DNA from: an uncultured Candidatus Saccharibacteria bacterium
GTDB lineage: Bacteria; Patescibacteriota; Minisyncoccia; Phycocordibacterales; UBA2163
Direction: 5' to 3'
Length of the DNA: 64,000 nt
NCBI GenBank assembly: GCA_964626705.1
Contig: CAZVGL010000001.1
Location: 4,441 to 68,440, forward strand
A program made the position numbers and the translations under genes. Each line of letters begins with the position of its first letter. The first letter of the stretch is position 1. The notes under the pieces were generated by a model, which was given only the letters and a program-made list of their open reading frames with translations, had not been told where the DNA came from and ran no database searches. This document shows positions 2,315 through 59,969 of this stretch, in pieces.

Positions 2315-2758
2315 TTAATTTCTATGTTCTTTCGCAATAATCATGTATGCTAGTATTTTTTCCAATACACCATCTTCACAACTACAACAACCAGGAGTTT
2401 CTAGTAAGGCTTTGATTTCTTTATCACTCTCAAGAAAATCAGAAATATCTTCATTGAAAGATACTGAGCCAGTAAGATAATGTATTGATATTTTTTTACC
2501 AAACCTATCCAATAACAAACTTATCTTGTAATCAATAGAGCATCCGCAACTTATAAACCACACTCGCCTTCCGTTTTTATTTTTTTGCTCTAGTTCCCCT
2601 ATTATTTCTTCCAGAGGAAGAAGGTTATCTTCTGCACCAGGACGAGACTTTCTGACCTCAATCGTGTCTGCATAAACAAATACATCTTTTTTTAAGGTTT
2701 TAAAATCATAAATTTTATCCTCTTTGTGTGGATTATGTATAACTTGTATTTTGGCCAT
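2315..2758 (-). CDS. hypothetical protein with Cys motifs (SCGCS, GCCSC)
   Basis: 147-aa ORF located 18 nt upstream of the next gene. No family recognised. Confidence 0.5.
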   Translation of the reverse strand: MAKIQVIHNPHKEDKIYDFKTLKKDVFVYADTIEVRKSRPGAEDNLLPLEEIIGELEQKNKNGRRVWFISCGCSIDYKISLLLDRFGKKISIHYLTGSVSFNEDISDFLESDKEIKALLETPGCCSCEDGVLEKILAYMIIAKEHRN

Positions 2759-2820
2759 TTCTCCTTCTCCTTTATATTAATTTCAATATTCTTTATATTC
2801 TACCTATATTATACACTTGT

Positions 2821-2850
2821 TTGATAGAATGTCAAACAAAATAGTATAAT
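2821..2850 (+). promoter_or_regulatory. sigma70-like promoter (TTGATA-N18-TATAAT)
   Basis: TTGATA gaatgtcaaacaaaatag TATAAT lies about 100 nt upstream of the Lrp-like gene. Confidence 0.45.
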
Positions 2851-2949
2851 TTCTTTATGTTTTGTCTGAAAAGATACTATATTGTATAAAATATAAAAAA
2901 ATAGTAGTATTAAATTATACTTTAATACACCCTTTTAACGACATGAGAT

Positions 2950-3984
2950 ATGAAAAAAGAGCTATCAGAATTAGACAAAAAAATACTCTACGAACTTGAC
3001 CAAGAAGGTCGCGAAAGCTTTGCCAGAATTGCCAAGACAATAGGCACCACCACACAAGTGGTTAAATATCATTACGATAAACTTATTGATAGCGGGGTTA
3101 TCAAGCACTTTTGGGCATTTGTTGACTATGATAAAGCAGGATATTCATTTTTCTGGGGATATTGGCTAAAATTCAGCGGACTCACAAAAGAAGCCGAAGA
3201 AGAAATGTATGCTGACTTCAAAACAAACGGGCATATACCCATAGTCATGCGTTGTGATGGATATGCTGATGCATTGCTAGGAATAATAGGTAAAGATATA
3301 TCTCATCATAATAAAGTCTTGGAGGACGTGTTCGCTAAGTATGGAAAATATATAACAATGAGCGACATTGTCGTTGGACTTGGCTTTATTAAGTTTCCAC
3401 GCTCATACTTGATTGGAAAAGAAAATAAAGTTGGCTCTTTTGTTGTTTCAGGTAGCACAGAAAAGATAAAAAATCTTTCCGAAGTAGATAAAAAGATAAT
3501 ATCTCTCTTGCAAGAAGACGGGAGGATGGATTTTACCCAAATCGCAAAGATTTTAGGAGTATCTGTAGGATTAGTACACAAACATTATTATAATCTAGTA
3601 GAAAAAGGTGTTATCACTAAAATCACATACACTCTTGATTATGAAAAAATCGGAATGGTTTTTTATAGAGTACTTTTCAAAATAATTCAGTATAATAAAG
3701 AAGAAATAGACCGTTTATACAAATTTTGTGAACTACATCCAAATATAATAAACTATGTTAAAGTTATGGGTGATTGGCAGTTAATACTTGATGTAGAAAT
3801 AGAAAGTCGTGACAAACTAAGAGACATGCTGAGGCAGATTAAAAACGATTTTAGAAGCATTGTTTATCAAATAGAAATTAACGAGATATACAAAATAGAT
3901 AAATTTACACAAATGGCTGTGGAGTATCCCGAACTAGGAAAACCCAAGCAACATACTTATCCAATACCAAACATAGAAAAATAA
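2950..3984 (+). CDS. Lrp/AsnC-family transcriptional regulator with tandem duplicated HTH plus AsnC-type domains
   Basis: Two internal repeats: LDKKILYELDQEGRESFARIAKTIGTTTQVVKYHYDKLIDSGVIK and VDKKIISLLQEDGRMDFTQIAKILGVSVGLVHKHYYNLVEKGVITK. Confidence 0.75.
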   Translation: MKKELSELDKKILYELDQEGRESFARIAKTIGTTTQVVKYHYDKLIDSGVIKHFWAFVDYDKAGYSFFWGYWLKFSGLTKEAEEEMYADFKTNGHIPIVMRCDGYADALLGIIGKDISHHNKVLEDVFAKYGKYITMSDIVVGLGFIKFPRSYLIGKENKVGSFVVSGSTEKIKNLSEVDKKIISLLQEDGRMDFTQIAKILGVSVGLVHKHYYNLVEKGVITKITYTLDYEKIGMVFYRVLFKIIQYNKEEIDRLYKFCELHPNIINYVKVMGDWQLILDVEIESRDKLRDMLRQIKNDFRSIVYQIEINEIYKIDKFTQMAVEYPELGKPKQHTYPIPNIEK

Positions 3985-12379: not shown

Positions 12380-12805
12380 TTACTTCTTTGCATCTGCAAC
12401 CAAACCTTGAGCTTTTTTGAGAAGATCTGACATCTTCTTCTCAATTTCAGCCTGCATCTTCTCAAGCTCAGAAATACTCTCATCAACTTTTTTTATTCCA
12501 TTTTCGAGCATTACTTTTAATTTAGTGTTATCTGTTGTATCAGCGATACCTTGAAATTTTGCCTTTTGTAATTCAGTAGCCATGATTAGACCAACAACTT
12601 TCTGAAGTTCTTTTGACAGTTGATCCGATTCATTCTTAATTTCAAACAACTCCATCTTAAGCAAGATATTGTCTGTCAGTTGGATAAGCACACTTTCCAT
12701 AGTTTTTGACTTCTGCTCATCTTGCGCAAACGAATTAGCAGAGAAAGAAATAGTAACAACAATCAGTAATGCAACAAAGGTAGGTATAATTTTCGCAAAT
12801 TTCAT
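12380..12805 (-). CDS. secreted coiled-coil protein (signal peptide)
   Basis: 141 aa, MKFAKIIPTFVALLIVVTISFSANSFAQDE... It shares its start codon context, signal-peptide-like 5' end and about 220-bp upstream leader with the two duplicated genes upstream. Confidence 0.55.
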   Translation of the reverse strand: MKFAKIIPTFVALLIVVTISFSANSFAQDEQKSKTMESVLIQLTDNILLKMELFEIKNESDQLSKELQKVVGLIMATELQKAKFQGIADTTDNTKLKVMLENGIKKVDESISELEKMQAEIEKKMSDLLKKAQGLVADAKK

Positions 12806-13023
12806 TTTCGGTCTCCTTTCAAGAGATGAAAATTAAAAAGATAATATTTAATGTACAAAACAATACACTTGTATCGTACTTATATATTAGCATACTTATA
12901 TATGTTTGTCAAGGGTTAATTTTACCCTTACTCTAAGCTAGATTTGGATGCAAAAAAAAGGCCCGGCATATAAATATAACATGCTCGGACCCCGTCTTTC
13001 TTGAAACTGCGAACTTACTTTAA

Positions 13024-13467
13024 CTATTCGCACATATTTACTAAATCCCCTGAAGTAAACTCAACACCAGCAATCTTTACTTCATCCAGATTAATGACCG
13101 CATAATCACCATCTATTGTGGCTCCATTACTAACCATCGCAGACCTGCTTATTTCAGTAGTATCGCCGTATACTTTGACCCTTGCTTTAACAACAAACTT
13201 CATAAGTTCTGCATTAAGCGCTATTTTTGCAACCATTATTCCAAATTTTTCGCTACCATTATTTAATGCTGTAAATTGTGCAACTTTTGTACGAAGCAAT
13301 ATTTTACCATCATCACTTGATACAAATTCATAATTAAGGACGTATTCGTTTCTTACTCCAGGAACCGTATAAGCCAAAAGTCGCTTTTCTGCAAATGAAT
13401 CAGCAGAGAAAGAAGCGGTAACAACAAATAGCAACATAGCAATAACGACAAGATTTCGGATTTTCAT
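13024..13467 (-). CDS. secreted hypothetical protein, duplicate copy 1
   Basis: 147 aa, MKIRNLVVIAMLLFVVTASFSADSFAEKRL... with a signal peptide. An AGGAG ribosome-binding site precedes it (gaaaggagaccgaaaATG). Confidence 0.6.
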   Translation of the reverse strand: MKIRNLVVIAMLLFVVTASFSADSFAEKRLLAYTVPGVRNEYVLNYEFVSSDDGKILLRTKVAQFTALNNGSEKFGIMVAKIALNAELMKFVVKARVKVYGDTTEISRSAMVSNGATIDGDYAVINLDEVKIAGVEFTSGDLVNMCE

Positions 13468-13545
13468 TTTCGGTCTCCTTTCAAGAGATGAAAATTAAAA
13501 AGATAATATTTAATGTACAAAACAATACACTTGTATCGTACTTAT

Positions 13546-13574
13546 ATATTAGCATACTTATATATGTTTGTCAA
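13546..13574 (-). promoter_or_regulatory. sigma70-like promoter TTGACA-N17-TAATAT (minus strand)
   Basis: Equivalent copies lie at 12884-12912 (for the 12380 gene) and 14208-14236 (for copy 2). Each leader also carries the motif TCTAGCTTAGA just upstream of the -35 box, although that motif is absent from the diverged third leader. Confidence 0.5.
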
Positions 13575-13685
13575 GGGTTAATTTTACCCTTACTCTAAGC
13601 TAGATTTGGATGCAAAAAAAAGGCCCGGCATATAAATATAACATGCTCGGACCCCGTCTTTCTTGAAACTGCGAACTTACTTTAA

Positions 13686-14129
13686 CTATTCGCACATATT
13701 TACTAAATCCCCTGAAGTAAACTCAACACCAGCAATCTTTACTTCATCCAGATTAATGACCGCATAATCACCATCTATTGTGGCTCCATTACTAACCATC
13801 GCAGACCTGCTTATTTCAGTAGTATCGCCGTATACTTTGACCCTTGCTTTAACAACAAACTTCATAAGTTCTGCATTAAGCGCTATTTTTGCAACCATTA
13901 TTCCAAATTTTTCGCTACCATTATTTAATGCTGTAAATTGTGCAACTTTTGTACGAAGCAATATTTTACCATCATCACTTGATACAAATTCATAATTAAG
14001 GACGTATTCGTTTCTTACTCCAGGAACCGTATAAGCCAAAAGTCGCTTTTCTGCAAATGAATCAGCAGAGAAAGAAGCGGTAACAACAAATAGCAACATA
14101 GCAATAACGACAAGATTTCGGATTTTCAT
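13686..14129 (-). CDS. secreted hypothetical protein, duplicate copy 2 (100% identical)
   Basis: Identical 147-aa product; part of the tandem duplication. Confidence 0.6.
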   Translation of the reverse strand: MKIRNLVVIAMLLFVVTASFSADSFAEKRLLAYTVPGVRNEYVLNYEFVSSDDGKILLRTKVAQFTALNNGSEKFGIMVAKIALNAELMKFVVKARVKVYGDTTEISRSAMVSNGATIDGDYAVINLDEVKIAGVEFTSGDLVNMCE

Positions 14130-16408: not shown

Positions 16409-16412
16409 AAAT

Positions 16413-48078: not shown

Positions 48079-49080
48079 TTAAAACGGGTTTTTAGCACCA
48101 CGTATCTCGAAGTGGACATGAGGGCCTGTAGATCGGCCTGTTGAACCGACGTAGCCGATAACCTGACCTTGGACTACATGCTGTCCTGAGTAAACAATGT
48201 TACTTGAGTTGTGAGAATAAAGAGTTTGTGTGCCGTTGCTGTGTTTTATAACAACATACTTTCCGTAACCTCCATTCCATCCAGAACCTCTACTTATTAT
48301 CACATTACCTGAAGCTGATGCGAGAATAGGTGTTCCAACAGGTGCTGCATAGTCGACGGCATTGTATCCATGAAGTCCTTGTGAACGACGTCCGGCAGTG
48401 ATGGGTTTAATATAGTATCCGCTATATGATGGAGCAACTGATCCTTTTACTACATGACCAGCACTTGTGTATGAAGGCGTTGCTATTTCTCCGTCTGGTA
48501 CTACTATTATGTCACCAACAGCAATGGTTGATTCTAAAGTAAGGTCGTTGTATTGAAGTATTTCTTCATAGTCACCGCCGTATTTCTTAGTAATACTTTT
48601 AACAGTCTCACCTTTTACCACAGCGTGTCGTACTCCAGTAATAGGTAGTATCACAAGTGTTTGTCCGGGGGTTATAAATGAACCTCTTTTGATGTCATTT
48701 GCCCAGATAATGGTATTTGTAGATACGTTAAACATCTTTGCGATCTGTGACAGAGAATCTCCTTCGCGTACTACATAGATACTGATCTCGTCAGATGAAG
48801 CTGGTCTTTCTTCTATCTCTGCTAGTGTTCCTGACGGTCCTATTTCAGAAAGTAGAGCCTCATCGTCAACGATAATTATCGCACCACCTCCTTTTGAAGG
48901 GTTGGGGTCTATATTAAGAGCCGCTCTTAGAACGGGTATTGTTTGTGAGTTATATGCGCTAGTGGTAGCTATTTCCACCTTTTTTGATGACGAAAACAGT
49001 CCTGAAACAAAAGAAAATACTCCAGCATGAGCAAGTCCTGGAGTAGACAGAGTTCCTACAATAAGTGCAGAAAATACCAC
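48079..49080 (-). CDS. LysM-domain M23 family metallo-endopeptidase (peptidoglycan hydrolase)
   Basis: LysM (YVVREGDSLSQIAKMFNVSTNTIIWAN) and M23 motifs (HNGTQTLYSH...GSTGRSTGPHVHFE). Confidence 0.85.
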   Translation of the reverse strand: MVFSALIVGTLSTPGLAHAGVFSFVSGLFSSSKKVEIATTSAYNSQTIPVLRAALNIDPNPSKGGGAIIIVDDEALLSEIGPSGTLAEIEERPASSDEISIYVVREGDSLSQIAKMFNVSTNTIIWANDIKRGSFITPGQTLVILPITGVRHAVVKGETVKSITKKYGGDYEEILQYNDLTLESTIAVGDIIVVPDGEIATPSYTSAGHVVKGSVAPSYSGYYIKPITAGRRSQGLHGYNAVDYAAPVGTPILASASGNVIISRGSGWNGGYGKYVVIKHSNGTQTLYSHNSSNIVYSGQHVVQGQVIGYVGSTGRSTGPHVHFEIRGAKNPF

Positions 49081-49317: not shown

Positions 49318-50079
49318 CTATTTTTCAATCAATTTTGTTGCTTTTTCAAGTCTAGTTTTCCACACTATTTCAAAAATTTGTTTCATAGTATCAGCTATGT
49401 CTTTATTTTCTATACGAGTAATTTGTAAATCTCTAAAAGAAAAGAAAGAAATAAAATCATCCCCCACAGTCACAGAAATATTGGCAGAATATTCATCAAG
49501 TGGAATAGTTTTTAGTTGACGATTATATTTCCCATCAGTCTTTCTAGCCCAATCAAGATTGGGGTGGTCTGGCACGATCCCTCGCATTCTATTATTATTT
49601 TTCTTAAAATCCTCCATATTTTCTATAAAAAATTCAACAAGTTCTTTTGAGGCATCACCAGAATGTGCATAGAAACCAAGCGTTTCTTTATCTTTCATCT
49701 TTCTGTTTTCCCATCTGAAGTTTTCTTTCACACCTTTCATCCCCTCAAAAAATAAAGTTCTTGGTTTTGGTTTTTCTCCTTCTTTCATTGCTTTAAGTTG
49801 TGGCAATATAGTTTTTGCTAAAGATATTCGCTCTTCAGCCATAGCAAATAGTTCTTCAGGAGGCTTTGCCACGAAGAGCTGTTTTCTTACTCTAGGTATA
49901 CGACTTGCAAGGCCTTTTTCTATGAGGTCGTCTAAGATTACATAAGTAGTAGGTTTTTTAAGACCAGATTCTTCCGCAATACCATATGCAGAAGTCCTTC
50001 CGCGCTTGAGTAAGGCGGTATACACGCGAGCTTCTTTGTCTGTTAGTCCTAGGTTTTGTAAGGCTTCTATTATAGTCAT
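49318..50079 (-). CDS. TrmB-family HTH transcriptional regulator
   Basis: LGLTDKEARVYTALLKRGRTSAYGIAEESGLKKPTTYVILDDLIEKGLA, an N-terminal TrmB-type wHTH. Confidence 0.65.
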   Translation of the reverse strand: MTIIEALQNLGLTDKEARVYTALLKRGRTSAYGIAEESGLKKPTTYVILDDLIEKGLASRIPRVRKQLFVAKPPEELFAMAEERISLAKTILPQLKAMKEGEKPKPRTLFFEGMKGVKENFRWENRKMKDKETLGFYAHSGDASKELVEFFIENMEDFKKNNNRMRGIVPDHPNLDWARKTDGKYNRQLKTIPLDEYSANISVTVGDDFISFFSFRDLQITRIENKDIADTMKQIFEIVWKTRLEKATKLIEK

Positions 50080-50300
50080 ATTTTTAGTATATATTATATA
50101 AATAAATAGTCAATAATTTTGATGATAAGTCATATAAAAGTGTAAATAATGGCTTATTTAAAGGGGGTACTAGGTACTTTTTAGTCATTAAATTAGACAC
50201 TAGACTTGACTTTTTAAACTCATCATGTATAATGTAGGCAGAATCATAAATTAAATAATTATCATTTCTTTTACACTTTTCTCTTGAAAGGAGAATTATT

Positions 50301-50777
50301 ATGAAAAAGATTTTATTGATCGAAGATAGCCAGCACCATGTAGACTCTGCAAAGAAATTTTTTGCAGACAAAGATGTGGAACTAAAAATAGTTTGTAATT
50401 TTGATGGGTTTCTTGGAGAACTTAGAAACTTACGTGCAAACTATGACGGCATCTTGTCAGACATCTTCATACCATATGATGATGAGCAGTTCACAGAGGA
50501 AGTTCCTGCAGGGGTTGGGATTTTCTCAATATGTTCTGCTAGAGCGATTCCCTGCATTCTTGTTACAGCAGGACATCATCACGGTCAGAAATACCATTGG
50601 ATAGGATCTATGGTAACCCGTCTTGTTGGAGATGGTCGGCATGTACTTGTTGACACTAAAAAGAGTGGACATTATCTGGGCGACAAGGAGCTGGATGAAG
50701 ATTCTCCAGAGAAAAACTGGAGTCGCGCATACGAGAGTCTTTTGAAAGAGATCTCTCGAATCCCAGTCACAGGATGA
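50301..50777 (+). CDS. stand-alone CheY-like receiver (REC) domain protein, possibly atypical
   Basis: MKKILLIEDS..., GILSDIFIPY (phospho-acceptor Asp context) and ILVTAGHHH (T/A position). No output domain. Confidence 0.4.
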   Translation: MKKILLIEDSQHHVDSAKKFFADKDVELKIVCNFDGFLGELRNLRANYDGILSDIFIPYDDEQFTEEVPAGVGIFSICSARAIPCILVTAGHHHGQKYHWIGSMVTRLVGDGRHVLVDTKKSGHYLGDKELDEDSPEKNWSRAYESLLKEISRIPVTG

Positions 50778-51103
50778 TGAGATATCTTATATTTTATAAT
50801 AATTTTCTAAGGAGAAAAAAGTGAAGTAGACCAGAAAAAAAGTCCCCCTGGGCGAAGGCGTACAAACGTCTCGGCAACATAAAGCACACGCTATTTGTAG
50901 AGATAAGGTCTCTTAAAAAACCTTTCTGTATTGAGATGTGTATCTCAACTGATGATTCCGAAAGGATGAAACAGAATGCTCCCTGTTTGCTCAAGAGCAT
51001 AGCGATTGATTTGCAAACAGCAGTCCTGTTAAAGGTTCCCGATAGTTCTTTAAATTTAAAATTAAATATTTCTTTTAACTTTTCTCTTGAAAGGAGAATT
51101 GGA

Positions 51104-51409
51104 ATGAACTTGTTAAGTGTATATTTAGAAAATGATATTAAAGAAGCAATTAAAAACAAAAGGATGAACGAAAACCAGGTAAAGCAAACGATGAATGATG
51201 CCGCAAAGGAATACATAGATCAGTTTAGCGACAAGTCGCACAAATCAAATGCCATAGCGATAAAGTTGTTTTTATCAGGAGACTTTATAACTTGTGACTT
51301 TGAGAGATTTACGAAAGAGGCAGTAGAGATAGCTAGAAAAAAAGGTATTGAGGCAAAAAACTATTTTGAAATTCTTTTAGAAAAAGTTAGAGAGGGGAAT
51401 AAAAAATGA
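51104..51409 (+). CDS. small hypothetical protein (101 aa)
   Basis: Start at the Met preceded by ttttctcttgaaaggagaatt, the same 5' context as 50301. Its stop overlaps the next start (ATGA). Confidence 0.4.
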   Translation: MNLLSVYLENDIKEAIKNKRMNENQVKQTMNDAAKEYIDQFSDKSHKSNAIAIKLFLSGDFITCDFERFTKEAVEIARKKGIEAKNYFEILLEKVREGNKK

Positions 51410-51801
51410 AAACTGAAAAAACTGTTAAGAAGGCCTTAAGAGTAAAATGTCATCTTTGTGGAAAAAGAATGGCGGTTCAGCAAGGAACCTTAGATGTTGG
51501 TCCATATACGTGCGAAAACTGTTTTGACGAGATTAATAAAGGATCAAGAAAATTTAAAGTGCATTGGGGAAGCGAAGTAGATAAGGAAATTGAGATATTG
51601 AAGTTTAAAGCTGTTGCTCAAGAGAAATCAATGAAACTCTGTTGTAGTAATAAGAGTAAATGCGGTATGGATACACATGACGTTGGCGATGTACTTGTAT
51701 TCTTTGATGTAAATGTACGATTTTCTGACGGAAAAGAATTTCATTACGATGGATGTTGCCACATAATTCCACCTATTGAGTACTGGTGTGTTGCGTCTTA
51801 G
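51406..51801 (+). CDS. Cys-rich (zinc-ribbon-like) hypothetical protein
   Basis: CHLCGK...CENC N-terminal ribbon plus CCSNKSKC and GCCH motifs. Translationally coupled to the upstream small gene. Confidence 0.45.
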   Translation: MKTEKTVKKALRVKCHLCGKRMAVQQGTLDVGPYTCENCFDEINKGSRKFKVHWGSEVDKEIEILKFKAVAQEKSMKLCCSNKSKCGMDTHDVGDVLVFFDVNVRFSDGKEFHYDGCCHIIPPIEYWCVAS

Positions 51802-51880
51802 AAAGGGGGCGGATAGATTTTACAATAAAAGGTAAAATTTATTCGCCTTTTGTTGTTTTTATTATGTTATTATTTTACAT

Positions 51881-52831
51881 ATGTCTAAGTTAGAACAAGA
51901 CAAACAAATAAAAGTAAATAATGAAAATATTACTACAATATTAAGATTTTACGATATTACAAAATTTACTTACCGTGAAATAAAACAAGGTATTGAAAAT
52001 ACATCTCTATATATTGAAGAAGACAATAAAAAATATGTATTAAGAATTTATCGCGCTGACAGTAAGACTGACAAAGAGATTTGTTTTGAGCTTGAATTCC
52101 AAGATTATTTACGCAAACACAAGATTCCTATTCCTATCATATATAAAAATATAGATGGAAATGAATTAAGTATTATAGAGTTAGGTAGCACAAAATGGCA
52201 AGTAATCTTAATGGAATTTTGTAAAGGTGATATAGGAATCTCAAACATTACCTATAGTAATCAGTTAATACATGAACTTGCCACGATTCAGTCAAAGATG
52301 CATAAGCTTGGAGTGGTTTTTTCTAAAAAATATCCGTGTGAAAATAAATGGAAAAATCTAAAAGATTCTTACGTAATAAAAATCGATGTAAATAAATATT
52401 CCGATAGAATAAAAAGTTTTCTTCAAAGATCTAATTCATTTTCATATATATTACCTACAGAAATTACATATGGATACAATCATTTAGATATTGATTTTGA
52501 TGGCAATGTTATTGTTAATAATGACACTATTTCTGGAATTATAGACTTTGATGATCTTAAGTATTCACCAAATATCGTGTGTTTGGGGTATACACTTTGG
52601 GGTATCCTATTTGATTATGGAATAGATGAAATGAATACGTATTTAAAAAAATATCAAGAATTACATCCATTAAATCAATTTGAAATGGAAGCACTTCCAC
52701 AGTGCATATTGTTTAGAAATTATACGATCGGAGTACTTAATCGTTTATTTGAAGGTAGCGACGAAAAAATAGAGAAAATTATTAAACTTGAATCAGAGAT
52801 TCCTAGGTTGTTTAATTCATACAATCTTTAA
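51881..52831 (+). CDS. aminoglycoside/choline-kinase-like phosphotransferase (APH family)
   Basis: Brenner-like HLDIDFDGN and DFDD motifs with N-lobe K (YVLRIY). Very low GC, about 27%. Confidence 0.55.
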   Translation: MSKLEQDKQIKVNNENITTILRFYDITKFTYREIKQGIENTSLYIEEDNKKYVLRIYRADSKTDKEICFELEFQDYLRKHKIPIPIIYKNIDGNELSIIELGSTKWQVILMEFCKGDIGISNITYSNQLIHELATIQSKMHKLGVVFSKKYPCENKWKNLKDSYVIKIDVNKYSDRIKSFLQRSNSFSYILPTEITYGYNHLDIDFDGNVIVNNDTISGIIDFDDLKYSPNIVCLGYTLWGILFDYGIDEMNTYLKKYQELHPLNQFEMEALPQCILFRNYTIGVLNRLFEGSDEKIEKIIKLESEIPRLFNSYNL

Positions 52832-52992
52832 AGACAATATAAAAAATGTGAAAATCTGTATTTTTTAGTAGTTTTTCACGATTTTGTTACGTGATTTGTT
52901 GAAAAATACTGCCGCTAGGTCAAACCTAGCGGATTTATTCTTTCTAGGTCTTTTTTGATTGACAATGTCATTACATTGAATATAATATAAAT

Positions 52993-53271
52993 ATGGACTC
53001 AACATTACAAATAAGAATAAACAAAAGAACTAAAGAAAAGGCTAAAAAGGTATTTAATGACCTCGGTATAGACATGTCTTCTGGTGTGAAGTTATACCTT
53101 TCGCAGGTAATCAATACTGGCTCCATATTATTTTATCCCACTACTAAGAATGGTTTTTCTATGGCTAAAGAGCAAGAGATGATAGAAGAAGTAAATCAGG
53201 TTATTGATAATAAAAGAGGTAAATTATACAAAACCGCTGAAGAAGCTCATGTAGATATATTAAAGACATAG
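52993..53271 (+). CDS. type II antitoxin, RelB/DinJ family
   Basis: LQIRINKRTKEKAKKVFNDLGIDMSSGVKLYLSQVINTGSI is the DinJ pattern. Confidence 0.65.
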   Translation: MDSTLQIRINKRTKEKAKKVFNDLGIDMSSGVKLYLSQVINTGSILFYPTTKNGFSMAKEQEMIEEVNQVIDNKRGKLYKTAEEAHVDILKT

Positions 53272-53274
53272 TTT

Positions 53275-53556
53275 ATGTTTAAGATAAAAATTGCTCCCAC
53301 CTATAAGAGAGCTTTTAAAAGGTTGGTCAAATCAGGCAGAGCAAAAGACGTTAAAAAATTAGAAGGGGTTATAGGGCTCATCGCTTCTGGGCAGAAATTA
53401 GATAAAAAACATAAGAATCATTTTTTAACAGGTAAAATGTCGGAATTTCAAGAATGTCATATAAAAGATGATCTATTACTTATTTACTTTAAAAATAAAC
53501 AAAATTTAGTTCTAGTACTAATTAATACAGGTAATCATTCAGAATTATTTAGTTAA
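53275..53556 (+). CDS. type II toxin, YafQ/RelE family mRNA interferase
   Basis: ...HKNHFLTGKMSEFQECHIKDDLLLIYFKNKQNLVLVLINTGNHSELF is the YafQ signature. Lies 3 nt after the antitoxin. Confidence 0.65.
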   Translation: MFKIKIAPTYKRAFKRLVKSGRAKDVKKLEGVIGLIASGQKLDKKHKNHFLTGKMSEFQECHIKDDLLLIYFKNKQNLVLVLINTGNHSELFS

Positions 53557-53571
53557 AATATGCATTACAAA

Positions 53572-53652
53572 ACCTCTCCTCAATGTCCCACCTACGAAGG
53601 AGGAGTTTCGTATCTCCTTCGTCGTCTATCTGCGAGGAACAACCTTTTCCCT
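53572..53652. repeat. dispersed palindromic intergenic repeat, copy R8 (diverged)
   Basis: cctctcctcaatgtcccacctacgaaggaggagtttcgtatctccttcgtcgtctatctgcgaggaacaacctt. Confidence 0.6.
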
Positions 53653-53688
53653 AGATTTTTGAAATTTAATTTATGGTATATTACTTAA

Positions 53689-58205: not shown

Positions 58206-59969
58206 ATGAGTAAAAATATTTTTAAAAAAATAATATCCAGTATTCTAACAATCGCAATTTTTGCAATAAGTATTTTTGGTACTTTTAATATTAGTATTAC
58301 AGTTGCCGCAACAAAACCACCAAGGACTCAAGGATTGCCAGGATCAGGGACAAGTGGTAATCGTAATGAAATCATGACAGGGGCTGAAGGGGTAAATGCT
58401 GTTGGGGTAAATACAGCAACTGTGGTAGTTGATCAAGATGTTGTAGGTATGTTGTCACCAGTTGATAAATTAATTGATCAAGATGTTGTAGGTATGTTGT
58501 CACCAGTTGATAAATTAATTGATCAAGATGCTATAGGTATGTTGTCAGCAAATGATGCACAGATAAGTCAAGTAAAAAACAAAACAGCAGGGATTTTAAG
58601 TTCAAACCCTTTTGGAAACAGTATGGTTCCTACAGATGATGTAAAAGATAATTACAAAGAAAGGGTACAAGATTCTATTTGGTCACTTATGGCAAAAAGA
58701 GCTATAAGGATGATCACTACAAGTACTGTAAACTGGATAAATAATGGTTTTCAGGGTGGTCCAGCATATGTAACAGATCTTAACGGTTTTCTTCTTGATG
58801 TTGCAGATGATCAGACTAGTATCTTCATAGAGCGTCTAGGGCTTACAGATCTATGTAGTCCTTGGAAGTTAGACATACGAATTGCATTAGCAATGAGACA
58901 GGCAGCACCGTTTGACAGAGAAATCGCATGTACCCTCTCTGACATTGTGGCAAATATGGATGATTTTATAAATGGAGATTTCTCTCAAGGTGGATGGGCA
59001 GGGTGGTTTGAACTTACTACAAAACCACAAAATAACCCTTATGGACTTTATCTTATGACAGCATCTGAGCTTGACCAAAGGATAGCGGGTACACAACAGC
59101 GACAGACACAAATCCTTGATTGGGGTGATGGATTTCTTTCGTATGAAGAATGTGAAGACTTACCCGAAGGGTTTGGGGGACCACCGCGTTGTGAAATAGT
59201 AACACCGGGGACTGTTATTGAAAATCAATTAGACCATGTTTTGGGTACTGGTGTAAGGCAGTTAGAGCTTGCGGATGAATTTAATGAAGTAATAAATGCT
59301 TTAATGCAACAGCTTGTGGTACAAGTATTTACTGGAGTAGATGGATTGAGGGGTGTAAGTAGAAGTTATGGAGGTAACCCATCGTATACAAACCGTCTTT
59401 CAGCTACTGAAGATAATACTACGATAGGAAATGTCATAGCAAGTTCAGAGCTTGAGTTTGGAAGGGTGTTAAATGAAGAGTTAGTTTACCTGACAGCCAA
59501 AGACGGCTCACTTAAGAGTATTGAGGCGGCAGAAAACAGACTTTCTAGCTTGGTCGCATGTTACGACAATAAACTCGCGGATATCAGTTTGAATTTAACT
59601 ATTAGTGAAAAAACAATAGCTCTTGAGAGGAGAAACAGTGCCTCTTCTACTATAGATACACTCATCACACCGCGTAAGAATATTCTTATCACAGAAATAG
59701 ATTTTTCAAGTAGGGTTATATTGAAATTAGATTCATTGTTAACTAATATGCAAAACGCAACAAATCCAATTCAGCTTCAAGTACCTACAAGTGAGTTAGA
59801 AAGTATGCGCAGACAGGATATTCTAAGAGGTCCATATATATTTTCTGCAGAGCAGGAAAGGGTGGGATTGTTGAGCGAGATGAATGCACTTAACCAAGAT
59901 ACTGAGAATAAAATTACAGAATGTCAGGTATTCCCGCTGCTACCGCAGGGGCAACAGCAGAATCCATAA
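58206..59969 (+). CDS. large secreted hypothetical protein with internal 15-aa tandem repeats
   Basis: N-terminal TM/signal helix. DQDVVGMLSPVDKLI repeated. Q-rich C-terminus. Confidence 0.5.
   Translation: MSKNIFKKIISSILTIAIFAISIFGTFNISITVAATKPPRTQGLPGSGTSGNRNEIMTGAEGVNAVGVNTATVVVDQDVVGMLSPVDKLIDQDVVGMLSPVDKLIDQDAIGMLSANDAQISQVKNKTAGILSSNPFGNSMVPTDDVKDNYKERVQDSIWSLMAKRAIRMITTSTVNWINNGFQGGPAYVTDLNGFLLDVADDQTSIFIERLGLTDLCSPWKLDIRIALAMRQAAPFDREIACTLSDIVANMDDFINGDFSQGGWAGWFELTTKPQNNPYGLYLMTASELDQRIAGTQQRQTQILDWGDGFLSYEECEDLPEGFGGPPRCEIVTPGTVIENQLDHVLGTGVRQLELADEFNEVINALMQQLVVQVFTGVDGLRGVSRSYGGNPSYTNRLSATEDNTTIGNVIASSELEFGRVLNEELVYLTAKDGSLKSIEAAENRLSSLVACYDNKLADISLNLTISEKTIALERRNSASSTIDTLITPRKNILITEIDFSSRVILKLDSLLTNMQNATNPIQLQVPTSELESMRRQDILRGPYIFSAEQERVGLLSEMNALNQDTENKITECQVFPLLPQGQQQNP
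58431..58556 (+). repeat. 45-bp in-frame tandem repeat, about 2.8 copies
   Basis: gatcaagatgttgtaggtatgttgtcaccagttgataaattaatt appears twice, followed by a diverged partial copy. Confidence 0.85.

Follow-up and report, generated by a model that had tools for sequence, protein, structure and literature searches.

A type III hammerhead ribozyme beside a TrmB/receiver-like gene pair in a composite block of a Candidatus Saccharibacteria genome

Does a run of small genes packed between two unrelated neighbours form one functional module, or is it a set of parts that lie side by side? The question is raised by positions 49318-53652 of a 64,000-nt stretch of DNA from an uncultured Candidatus Saccharibacteria bacterium (assembly GCA_964626705.1, contig CAZVGL010000001.1). 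This whole stretch is called the window; positions are given in its numbering, on the plus (+) or minus (-) strand, and related loci carry L numbers. The block codes for a TrmB-type regulator, a stand-alone receiver-like protein of 158 aa, two small proteins of 101 and 131 aa (p101 and p131), a kinase-fold enzyme of the APH family and a DinJ-YafQ toxin-antitoxin (TA) pair. A reading of the sequence alone, without database searches (the sequence-only reading), had taken it for an accessory island of low guanine-plus-cytosine (GC) content whose receiver domain, kinase-fold enzyme and coupled small proteins could be a signalling or defence-like module. The block is a composite of a TrmB/receiver-like gene pair, a transcript probably punctuated by a hammerhead ribozyme, a swappable kinase cassette and a TA pair. 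The ribozyme is located between the receiver-like gene and the two small genes.

The hammerhead ribozyme and its relatives

The intergenic gap between the receiver-like gene and the p101 gene spans 326 nt (50778-51103). It had been described as a 327-bp leader with several hairpins and does fold somewhat better than shuffled sequences (z = -2.1), but the hammerhead within it was overlooked. A permissive Rfam scan matches the Hammerhead_3 family (RF00008) at 50923-50977(+) with 34.6 bits, an E value of 9e-6 for a 501-nt stretch and of 0.0012 for the whole window searched on both strands with 4227 families. The score is below the RF00008 gathering score of 48.5 bits, thus standard annotation misses this hammerhead subfamily.

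Judged by its sequence, the segment 50924-50976(+) is a complete type III hammerhead with predicted self-cleavage. Stem III is open and pairs 50924-50929 (UUCUGU) with 50971-50976 (ACAGAA) over 6 bp, including the A15.1-U16.1 pair (U50929 with A50971). Cleavage is predicted after A50930, which is H17 of the triplet GUA. Stem I pairs 50931-50937 with 50942-50948 over 7 bp and is capped by a GUGU loop (UUGAGAU-GUGU-AUCUCAA). Stem II, formed by 50956-50959 and 50964-50967 under a GAAA loop, has 3 bp plus a U-U (U-UCC-GAAA-GGA-U). The conserved core is composed of CUGAUGA at 50949-50955 (C3-A9) and GAAA at 50968-50971 (G12-A14 and A15.1). All core positions are present and the sole departure from the consensus is found at the base of stem II, where a U50956/U50967 mismatch takes the place of the canonical G10.1-C11.1 pair.

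The minimum-energy structure of the isolated 61 nt has the hammerhead shape. A strict type III descriptor has a single match in the window and, over 300 kb searched on both strands, matched only loci carrying this ribozyme. A covariance model of the subfamily, R1, scores the window copy at 80.1 bits, a value obtained with the window sequence in the training set of the model. Further hammerheads are detected neither by the strict descriptor nor by R1, whether elsewhere in the window or in a set of 21 genome loci that hold receiver-like genes. A SAM-III (SMK box) riboswitch at 51024-51106 was considered and rejected: the match has 21.5 bits against 45 for RF01767 and rests on UUCCC...GGAGA pairing of anti-Shine-Dalgarno and Shine-Dalgarno sequences together with AT-rich sequence.

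Gene callers translate through the ribozyme, leading to false N-terminal extensions. Database models of the p101 gene reach back into the intergenic gap and code for 157 and 140 aa; the longer one takes an ATG of stem I (50936) as its start. The marine homologue of p101 starts at the same MNLLSVYLEND, which supports the shorter gene call of the sequence-only reading, with a start at 51104. The false N-termini begin with MCISTDD, the translation of stem I plus CUGAUGA (window 50936-51409; L179 9086-9814), a string that could serve as a handle for finding the hammerhead subfamily in protein databases. A source has named one of the extended models 'ABC-type glutathione transport system ATPase component'.

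P0002, the only distant homologue of the 158-aa protein in a word-indexed search (44% identical), is coded by a 1.4-kb contig (L001) that also has a type III hammerhead (34.2 bits), in which stem II UUCC/GGAU is changed to GCUC/GAGC and two stem I pairs are swapped. A marine relative (L003) has a near-identical hammerhead ~1 kb upstream of a pair of genes coding for 99 and 130 aa; the hammerhead is 93% identical between the window genome and this relative, compared to 80% for the p131 protein.

The subfamily is also common in phages. Viral contigs gave 54 loci with a search pattern that combines the stem I apex and the core; the descriptor has 90 matches in them, often 2-5 per contig. These hammerheads share the strand of the genes, are spaced by 1.1-1.5 kb and occupy short gaps before genes. 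Matches to the window segment are found in 65 Pseudomonas LUZ24-like, 3 Enterococcus and 2 Listeria phages, in intergenic DNA that carries no annotation. One of these phages is Clew-1 (L097, PQ790658.1), where the hammerhead at 1012-1068 has 73 bits with model R1 and overlaps the annotated start of the first plus-strand gene, in DNA unannotated as ribozyme; a possible second, weaker hammerhead is present at 2347-2404. This phage-associated subfamily falls below the Rfam cut-off and is therefore missed; it is there without annotation in the record of this cultured phage. A phage origin of the block region was rejected because no island protein has a tblastn match in the 54 hammerhead-bearing viral loci. 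When all window open reading frames (ORFs) of 80 aa or more are compared, DNA polymerase I is the single one with a match in these loci.

The stems of the ribozyme covary strongly. In a set of 49 distinct sequences of identical architecture, partly selected on pairing, 87.6% of the cells are paired and double changes occur in 16 of the 19 pairs. The covariation score is 0.659; shuffles give 0.191 +/- 0.014, none of 500 attaining the observed value, and controls with slid partners give 0.05-0.11 (maximum 0.113). In a set retrieved by the pattern only (41 distinct matches), stem I has four outer pairs that the pattern leaves unconstrained, and these are 4/4 paired in 41/41 sequences. The core is intact in every copy found. 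A standard 10.1-11.1 pair occurs in only 13 of the 49 subfamily members, the other 36 being without it, so that the U-U found in the window is the norm in this subfamily.

Natural hammerheads with U10.1-U11.1 were reported previously, U-U being the best tolerated mismatch there (Perreault et al. 2011, PMC3088659). The same work proposed that multiple hammerheads flanking prophage genes cut long phage transcripts into gene-length mRNAs, and showed in vitro cleavage for three tandem hammerhead arrangements (PMC3088659). In haloviruses HF1/HF2 a hammerhead is positioned 13 nt before the helicase start codon and a transcript has its mapped 5' end no more than three nucleotides away from the cleavage site (PMC3088659). 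Ribozymes that cleave themselves occur widely in bacteria and phages, with cellular roles that are mostly undefined (PMC6765202). In the literature searched, nothing relevant was found that links hammerheads with the Candidate Phyla Radiation (CPR), Patescibacteria or LUZ24-type phages.

The window ribozyme shares with the phage and prophage hammerheads of PMC3088659 the ribozyme class, the canonical core and the existence of U10.1-U11.1 variants. It likewise occupies an intergenic position on the gene strand, tens of nt before the next start codon, belongs to a subfamily common in phage contigs at 2-5 copies per contig, and has the same proposed role, the cutting of polycistronic RNA into gene-length mRNAs. 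It differs by its occurrence as a single copy in an apparently chromosomal, non-prophage region between M23 peptidase and uvrD, and by its repeated occurrence, in related loci that are likely to come from CPR bacteria, beside the gene of a TrmB-type regulator and in some cases also a receiver-like gene. In common with the RF00008 hammerheads of viroids, satellites and eukaryotic repeats, it has capped stems I and II, an open stem III, the core and the GUA cleavage-site rule. Differences to RF00008 are the compact stems (7-bp stem I with GUGU loop; stem II of 3 pairs plus U-U with GAAA/AAAA loop) and the location in a DNA genome, in an mRNA context and not in a rolling-circle replicon.

Recurrence beside TrmB and the leader cassette

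A metagenome scan with the hammerhead pattern alone yielded at least 120 loci. Full-length TrmB proteins of the window's family (hmmsearch 1e-28 to 1e-85) are encoded in 13 of the 120 listed loci, with 24-46% identity to the window protein, and in none of the 54 viral loci. Model R1 detects 30 hammerheads in 18 listed TrmB-linked loci, five of which have weaker TrmB matches. The ribozyme is found 0.34-2.2 kb from TrmB and points away from the TrmB gene in every listed pair. About half of the pairs are divergent and separated by 0.34-0.85 kb (845 nt in the window); in the rest the ribozyme is co-directional, 1.0-2.2 kb downstream. The window order is reproduced in L154, which has TrmB(-), an N-terminal receiver-like remnant and the hammerhead, while in L179 the hammerhead is located 65 nt before a receiver-like gene whose called ORF begins again with MCISTDD. 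The downstream genes vary among the listed hammerhead loci, coding for zinc-ribbon, secreted or orphan proteins.

Comparison of these sequences indicates that the hammerhead is kept with compensatory changes across lineages in which TrmB has diverged to 24-46% identity. Several TrmB-hammerhead loci share also the wider synteny of the window (XerC-like recombinase, rpsO, NYN), thus some of the recurrence comes from a single chromosomal region inherited within a clade. This synteny and the phyletic range of the receiver-like family both point to a CPR origin of the window genome. Ribozyme-punctuated operons are known; the recurrent placement of a hammerhead beside TrmB in CPR-type genomes is new.

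Some of the related loci have features of their own. In L130 (7240-7596) and L181 (711-1055) a conserved protein of 114-118 aa (MK.YFGF...SCLNPSHKATI), with no family assigned, is encoded between TrmB and the ribozymes, where it replaces the receiver-like gene in the same divergent position. Positions 1850-3950 of L003 are 2 kb of 45-52% GC in a ~33% GC background, with four small zinc-ribbon ORFs (53, 68, 89 and 86 aa) and long non-coding spacers (2610-3005 and 3700-3950) that may encode structured RNAs. A 100-nt repeat of L003 (2291-2400 and 3903-4008) is rich in short palindromes (TTTCAGA/TCTGAAA and GGGAA/TTCCC). In L126, L179 and L211 a hammerhead is followed by a homologue of the 86-aa protein.

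In the window the ribozyme is followed by a repeated leader. An identical 21-nt context had been noticed upstream of the genes at 50301 and 51104. The identity is real and covers 23 nt, ACTTTTCTCTTGAAAGGAGAATT, at 50275-50297 and 51078-51100, within a 62-nt direct repeat (family D14; copy 51047-51108) that is 73% identical; it is however not specific to these genes, its core TCTCTTGAAAGGAGA being found 7 times in the window compared to 0.12 expected. The complete leader has ~60 nt (GTTCTTTAAATTAAATA ... UCUCUU-GAA-AGGAGA ... AUG). By its sequence, the pyrimidine run can pair with the Shine-Dalgarno purines in a six-pair hairpin with a GAA loop. Copy 1 (50244-50300, +; Shine-Dalgarno context UCUCUU-GAA-AGGAGA at 50280-50294) precedes the 158-aa gene and directly follows a promoter-like site, without a hammerhead ahead. 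Copy 2 (51047-51103, +; GTTCTTTAAATT ... UCUCUU-GAA-AGGAGA at 51083-51097) is found directly before the p101 gene, with the leader motif starting 68 nt after the ribozyme. The leader is thus positioned behind a promoter-like site in one case and behind a ribozyme in the other, giving the same 5' untranslated region (UTR) in both settings. It precedes also three small genes in L003, whose leaders align with those of the block.

The association of leader and ribozyme was assessed in 29 hammerheads, which are the R1 matches in the listed TrmB-linked metagenome loci plus those of the window and L001. The leader motif begins within 12 nt of the ribozyme 3' end in 16 of these 29 listed hammerheads and in none of 35 distinct viral copies. 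This 3' extension (GTTCTTTA...) is a further difference to the phage hammerheads of PMC3088659. The sequence (G)TTCTTTA(AATT) is found directly 3' of the hammerheads in L001, L136, L183, L151, L148, L201 and L181, and also in L175, L130, L211, L200, L179 and L171; in the window it occupies 51045-51056. It may be a signal for processing, ribosome loading or regulator binding.

Three of the TCTCTTGAAAGGAGA copies precede genes of secreted proteins at 12805, 13467 and 14129. The segment 12800-14237(-) is a tandem duplication with a period of 662 bp, in which two units are 100% identical over 300 nt and the third is partial. Its genes, each behind a TCTCTTGAAAGGAGA leader, code for small secreted proteins (141, 147 and 147 aa).

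The TrmB-type regulator and the receiver-like protein

The first gene of the block (49318-50079, -) codes for a protein of 253 aa that had been identified as a divergently transcribed TrmB-type regulator. The assignment is correct: residues 7-75 match the winged helix-turn-helix (wHTH) family TrmB of Pfam (PF01978) with 8.6e-17 and 61.2 bits, the cut-off being 25.6. There is no Pfam match beyond residue 77, the scores with NCBIfam TrmB equivalogs are 17-28 bits versus cut-offs of 500-650, and no solved homologue is detectable by sequence. The protein shares with TrmB and TrmBL1 of Thermococcales the N-terminal winged-helix domain (PF01978 above cut-off). In contrast to these regulators it has no match to the C-terminal sugar-binding domain and a length of ~250 aa, not ~340 aa.

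The divergent gene 50301-50777(+) codes for the stand-alone protein of 158 aa, read previously as a CheY-like protein made of a receiver (REC) domain only. Its score with Pfam Response_reg (PF00072) is 14.0 bits versus a cut-off of 30.2 and it has no NCBIfam match, so that a structure model was needed to call the receiver fold. The AlphaFold2 model (pLDDT 93.3) has alternating strands and helices. All 50 listed Foldseek matches in the PDB carry receiver domains, with PmrA as the best one (E = 3e-4) and TM values, normalised to the target, of 0.71-0.73. An exhaustive profile search gave 452 cluster representatives, 146 of them below 1e-10, which are mostly stand-alone proteins of 140-180 aa.

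The family features the motifs ILvIED..H..DA, DGViSDixFP, PxGV, IPCvLxTAGyHHGxKYxWI and KNW. In 60 family members E8, D9, D54, T89, H93, H94, G95, K138 and W140 are invariant or near-invariant; E8-D9, D54 (DGILSD) and T89 (VTAG) are each invariant or at least 90% conserved. The family profile aligns these last four residues to the positions which in solved receivers hold the acidic pair, the phospho-acceptor Asp and the conserved Thr. The receiver fold proposed by the sequence-only reading is borne out and the phospho-acceptor is retained at D54; the score with the Pfam family is below cut-off. The 158-aa protein is a receiver-fold protein with a phospho-acceptor Asp, and its family, found in CPR bacteria and DPANN archaea, is unannotated. 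The invariant K138 (KNW) follows an insertion of ~20 residues after beta5, just before alpha5, and its equivalence to CheY K109 is thus only putative.

The genomic neighbourhood of the family was surveyed by a scan of one genome per species, which gave the 21 loci with receiver-like genes. By their labels, seven are from CPR bacteria (Saccharibacteria, Zambryski-, Kaiser- and Magasanikii-bacteria, Minisyncoccia) and eleven from archaeal metagenome-assembled genomes (Nano- and Woesearchaeota, and bins labelled Methanosarcinales); the remainder are two genomes labelled 'bacterium' and one bin labelled Bdellovibrionales. Clustering of the neighbour ORFs shows a single conserved neighbour of the receiver-like gene, a full-length divergent TrmB-type gene. 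It is present in the window and, among the 18 loci whose upstream sequence reaches 2 kb or more, in 12, from CPR as well as DPANN genomes. The TrmB/receiver-like gene pair is a conserved regulatory pairing, which suggests a physical or regulatory link between the two proteins. Neither the APH gene nor the small proteins travel with the receiver-like gene in the 21 loci; what is syntenic in relatives is the pairing with TrmB, not the kinase and small proteins. No kinase of the His-kinase type is found in the block with Pfam and no kinase occurs among the conserved neighbours in the 21 loci.

The pair is not always accompanied by the other elements described here. In ten other TrmB/receiver-like loci none of the Rfam ribozyme classes is found, and the marine relative L003 has neither a receiver-like gene nor a remnant of it. 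A conserved RNA downstream of receiver-like genes was considered and rejected, since the alignment of window 50778-50923 with L001 1124-1304 is no better than that of shuffles.

The nearest arrangement in the literature is that of Thaumarchaeota, where stand-alone REC genes are divergently paired with genes of ArsR-type regulators (Galperin et al. 2018, PMC5847659) and an interaction of the paired proteins is suspected (PMC5847659). The two complete Nanoarchaeota genomes surveyed in that work encode no two-component proteins (PMC5847659). The Thaumarchaeota pairs (PMC5847659) and the pair of the window have in common a CheY-like single-domain receiver, a divergent gene coding for a predicted DNA-binding regulator and the phospho-acceptor pocket. 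Here, in contrast, the partner is of TrmB type and the receiver family is below the Pfam cut-off, has the ~20-residue beta5-alpha5 insertion and the TAGxHHG / KNW signature, and is hosted by CPR and DPANN organisms.

Transcription, variable genes and the readings of the block

The block lies, as proposed, between an M23/LysM peptidase gene (48079-49080, -) and uvrD (from 53689), both identified in the ORF list and by family scans. Promoter- and terminator-like sites were identified by matches to consensus patterns, which are suggestive of function and not proof of it. In the window the terminator-like sites are enriched relative to shuffles (10 versus 1.9), while the total of promoter-like sites is no higher than expected from shuffles. 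The divergent region 50086-50233 holds candidate sites for TrmB (50113-50086, -; 10/12) and for the receiver-like operon (50206-50233, +; TTGACT-16-TATAAT, 11/12). The consensus scan finds no plus-strand terminator-like site from 50777 to 51104 and no promoter-like site of at least 9/12 within 50977-51103. With no terminator-like site before the ribozyme and no promoter-like site after it, one transcript carrying the 158-aa gene, the ribozyme, the leader and the p101 and p131 genes is the simplest interpretation. A terminator-like hairpin at 51804-51851(+) would close this unit. By their consensus sites the plus-strand genes are divided into three units, from the 158-aa gene to p131, APH, and DinJ-YafQ.

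The two small genes (p101, 51104-51409, +; p131, 51406-51801, +) were correctly called, as was the 158-aa ORF, and overlap in an ATGA stop/start, which argues only for coupled translation. The helical p101 is found only in this lineage: its two homologue clusters are from the same species and the marine relative, with 92% identity. The Cys-rich p131 features an N-terminal CxxC...CxxC and has three homologue clusters with 80-100% identity, the marine relative (L003-L012) being at 80%. This relative has the 99/130-aa pair without a receiver-like gene in the available sequence. Neither protein has a Pfam, NCBIfam, PHROG or PADLOC match above threshold. The AlphaFold2 model of p131 is poor (pLDDT 66, one of five models) and no fold was assigned, as Foldseek gives nothing below E = 0.65.

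The gene behind the terminator-like hairpin (51881-52831, +) codes for a small-molecule kinase of 316 aa with the APH/ChoK fold, in agreement with the earlier call of an APH-fold gene with ~27% GC. Pfam APH (PF01636) is matched with 4e-15 and 56.6 bits (cut-off 23.2), and the translation shows the catalytic loop NHLDIDFDGN and the Mg-binding GIIDFDD. The nearest solved structures are homoserine kinase II (2ppq, 3.5e-8) and amicoumacin kinase (6sui). An assignment as homoserine kinase II was rejected at 71.8 bits, the equivalog cut-off being 271. A bidirectional terminator-like hairpin of the APH gene is found at 52912-52932.

The marine relative also has an APH-fold gene after its 99/130-aa pair, but the two APH proteins share only the catalytic loop and are not orthologous. 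In L004, from this relative, a cassette of HAD, nucleotidyltransferase and APH genes is located between two copies of the p130 terminator. The hairpin copies of L004 are at 1285-1345 and 3811-3848, and their window counterpart is at 51804-51875. The presence of a different APH at the same place and the duplicated terminator show that the site behind the p131 terminator is a variable cassette slot, which is the best support for an accessory status of the APH/TA end of the block. The repeated terminator sequence suggests recombination at this element as the route of cassette exchange.

The block ends with the genes of a RelB/DinJ antitoxin (52993-53271, +) and a YafQ toxin (53275-53556, +), preceded by a perfect consensus promoter-like site (52959-52986, +; 12/12). 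The pair had been recognised from the sequence and its family models are matched above cut-off: 52.3 bits versus 45.65 for RelB_DinJ TIGR02384, 88.9 versus 30 for YafQ_toxin and 59.7 versus 27.9 for RelE_StbE. As in E. coli DinJ-YafQ the antitoxin gene comes first, a gap of 3 nt separates the genes, the family models are above cut-off and the C-terminal H-x-E-L-F motif is visible. The difference is that the toxin, with 67.8 bits, is below the 87.25 cut-off of the narrower YafQ model TIGR00053. DinJ-YafQ is a standard type II TA pair and probably an independent add-on to the block.

The description as a low-GC island applies to one part of the block. The mean GC of the window is 36.3 +/- 3.1% (950-nt windows). 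APH, with 26.9%, is the minimum of the entire 64 kb, and YafQ (28%), p101 (31.7%) and DinJ (31.9%) are low too, but TrmB (35.3%), the 158-aa gene (41.7%) and p131 (36.1%) are near or above the mean. Of the proposed mobile origin, what is supported is that the APH/TA end looks accessory, by its lowest GC and by a cassette content that differs in the nearest relative.

Repeat R8, where the island was thought to end, is present at 53572-53653(+) as a copy of a dispersed intergenic element (families D6 and D7). Copies of ~80 nt start at 16411, 21383, 25554(-), 27593, 33468, 42864, 43268, 53572 and 60587(-), at least 8 in 64 kb and in both orientations, with the consensus ...CTCCTCAAGGTCnCACCT...TCGAGGAAAGACCTTTTCCnGC. 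Its dispersal through the window implies that R8 is not an island boundary. The element resembles a repetitive extragenic palindromic (REP) sequence or a miniature inverted-repeat transposable element (MITE) and has no Rfam family match. A different kind of repetition is found at 58426-58560, where the gene of a 587-aa secreted protein contains a 45-nt unit three times in tandem, the later copies being 98% and 80% identical to the first; the units encode the repeated peptide (V/L)IDQDVVGMLSPVDK.

A composite of four parts with a ribozyme-punctuated transcript is probably the best explanation of the block. The plus-strand transcript would begin before the receiver-like gene and most likely read through the 326-nt gap. 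The RNA would then cut itself after A50930, leaving upstream a receiver-like mRNA with a 2',3'-cyclic phosphate end. The downstream mRNA would carry a 5'-OH, the folded ribozyme, the leader with its strong Shine-Dalgarno sequence and the coupled p101 and p131 genes. Stability and translation of the two halves would thereby be uncoupled, as proposed for prophage hammerheads. The genes following the ribozyme differ between relatives, being here those of two lineage-specific small proteins, and behind the terminator-like hairpin there is a slot occupied by the AT-rich APH-fold kinase, followed by DinJ-YafQ and the promoter-like site of this pair. That the genes are co-transcribed, that the RNA cuts itself in the cell and that expression is thereby affected is deduced from the arrangement of the sequence elements.

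Several points speak against this interpretation. Cleavage and expression at this locus are predictions from sequence, and the Rfam score is 34.6 bits for a gathering cut-off of 48.5. Stem II has only three Watson-Crick pairs plus the U-U, thus the cleavage rate could be low. A weak promoter may exist between the ribozyme and the p101 gene, in which case the ribozyme would be present only in read-through RNA. The leader begins 68 nt after the ribozyme and not directly at its end, so that the window arrangement may be rearranged. The TrmB-hammerhead loci are in part orthologous copies, not independent associations, and their counts are raw ones. The ten TrmB/receiver-like loci without a ribozyme imply that it is not needed for the function of the pair, and K138 is a putative counterpart of the receiver Lys109.

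How do the other explanations compare with the punctuated composite? That the receiver-like protein, the APH kinase and the coupled small proteins constitute one signalling or defence module, carried with the TA pair by a mobile low-GC island, would fit the position of all these genes on one strand within 3.3 kb, the intact phospho-acceptor pocket, the APH-fold kinase also found after the 99/130-aa pair of the marine relative, and the APH and TA genes having the lowest GC of the window. Its expected co-conservation is however absent: TrmB is the only recurrent neighbour of receiver-like genes in the 21 genome loci, and the relative with the 99/130-aa pair has no receiver-like gene in the available sequence. 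The two APH genes are unrelated beyond the catalytic loop, one of them having come in a HAD and nucleotidyltransferase cassette with a duplicated terminator, and the consensus sites split the block into three units. It is general knowledge that APH-fold enzymes of this branch, to judge from the nearest structures 2ppq and 6sui, phosphorylate small molecules and not Asp receivers. The suspected association with defence was not found either. The only similarity to PADLOC defence models is a weak one between the wHTH of TrmB and CARF/Csa3/CasR regulators (E = 2e-6 to 7e-3), the other six block proteins having no match in PADLOC-DB 2.0. Such a module is highly improbable.

The two remaining alternatives concern the ribozyme itself. 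It could be an inert relic of a phage or mobile-element insertion, or a passenger of the leader cassette, with no role in expression. The abundance of the subfamily in phage contigs and cultured phages, the 68 nt that separate the window copy from its usual leader, the weaker stem II with U-U and the ten loci devoid of ribozyme agree with this possibility. It is nevertheless quite unlikely in view of the intact core of all copies, of an element 93% identical to that of the marine relative when p131 is at 80%, of the compensatory stem changes with which loci of 24-46% identical TrmB retain the hammerhead, of the constant orientation relative to TrmB in the listed loci, and of the lack of phage proteins common to the region and the viral contigs. 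Another view is that the ribozyme acts mainly as an insulator or terminator-like element that trims the 3' end of the receiver-like mRNA, the p101 and p131 genes being driven by a promoter of the leader itself. The leader (GTTCTTTAAATTAAATA...) is AT-rich with -10-like hexamers, its equivalent upstream of the 158-aa gene is directly behind a good promoter-like site with no hammerhead ahead, and the same leader precedes the genes at 12805-14129 without hammerhead. This is unlikely given that 50977-51103 has no promoter-like site of at least 9/12 and that in related loci and phages the gap from hammerhead to start codon is often only 16-60 nt, which leaves no room for an additional promoter and a 5' UTR.

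The locus offers a compact testable case of the punctuated composite, with one promoter-like site, one hammerhead and differing gene sets on either side. The receiver-like family, with ~450 sequence clusters in CPR and DPANN organisms, is not modelled in Pfam or NCBIfam, and its TrmB partner is a lead into signalling in organisms mostly without classical two-component systems. A broader idea, which is doubtful but conceivable, is that in ultra-small CPR-type bacteria TrmB, the divergent receiver-like protein and the hammerhead(s) with their 3' leader form a dedicated expression platform. TrmB would set transcription, and the ribozyme-leader units would release and prime individual mRNAs of fast-changing small genes. 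If this is true, it would represent a cellular, chromosomal ribozyme punctuation serving a hypervariable and possibly host-interaction gene set of zinc-ribbon, secreted and orphan proteins, and the receiver-like family would be a kinase-less signalling input common to CPR bacteria and DPANN archaea.

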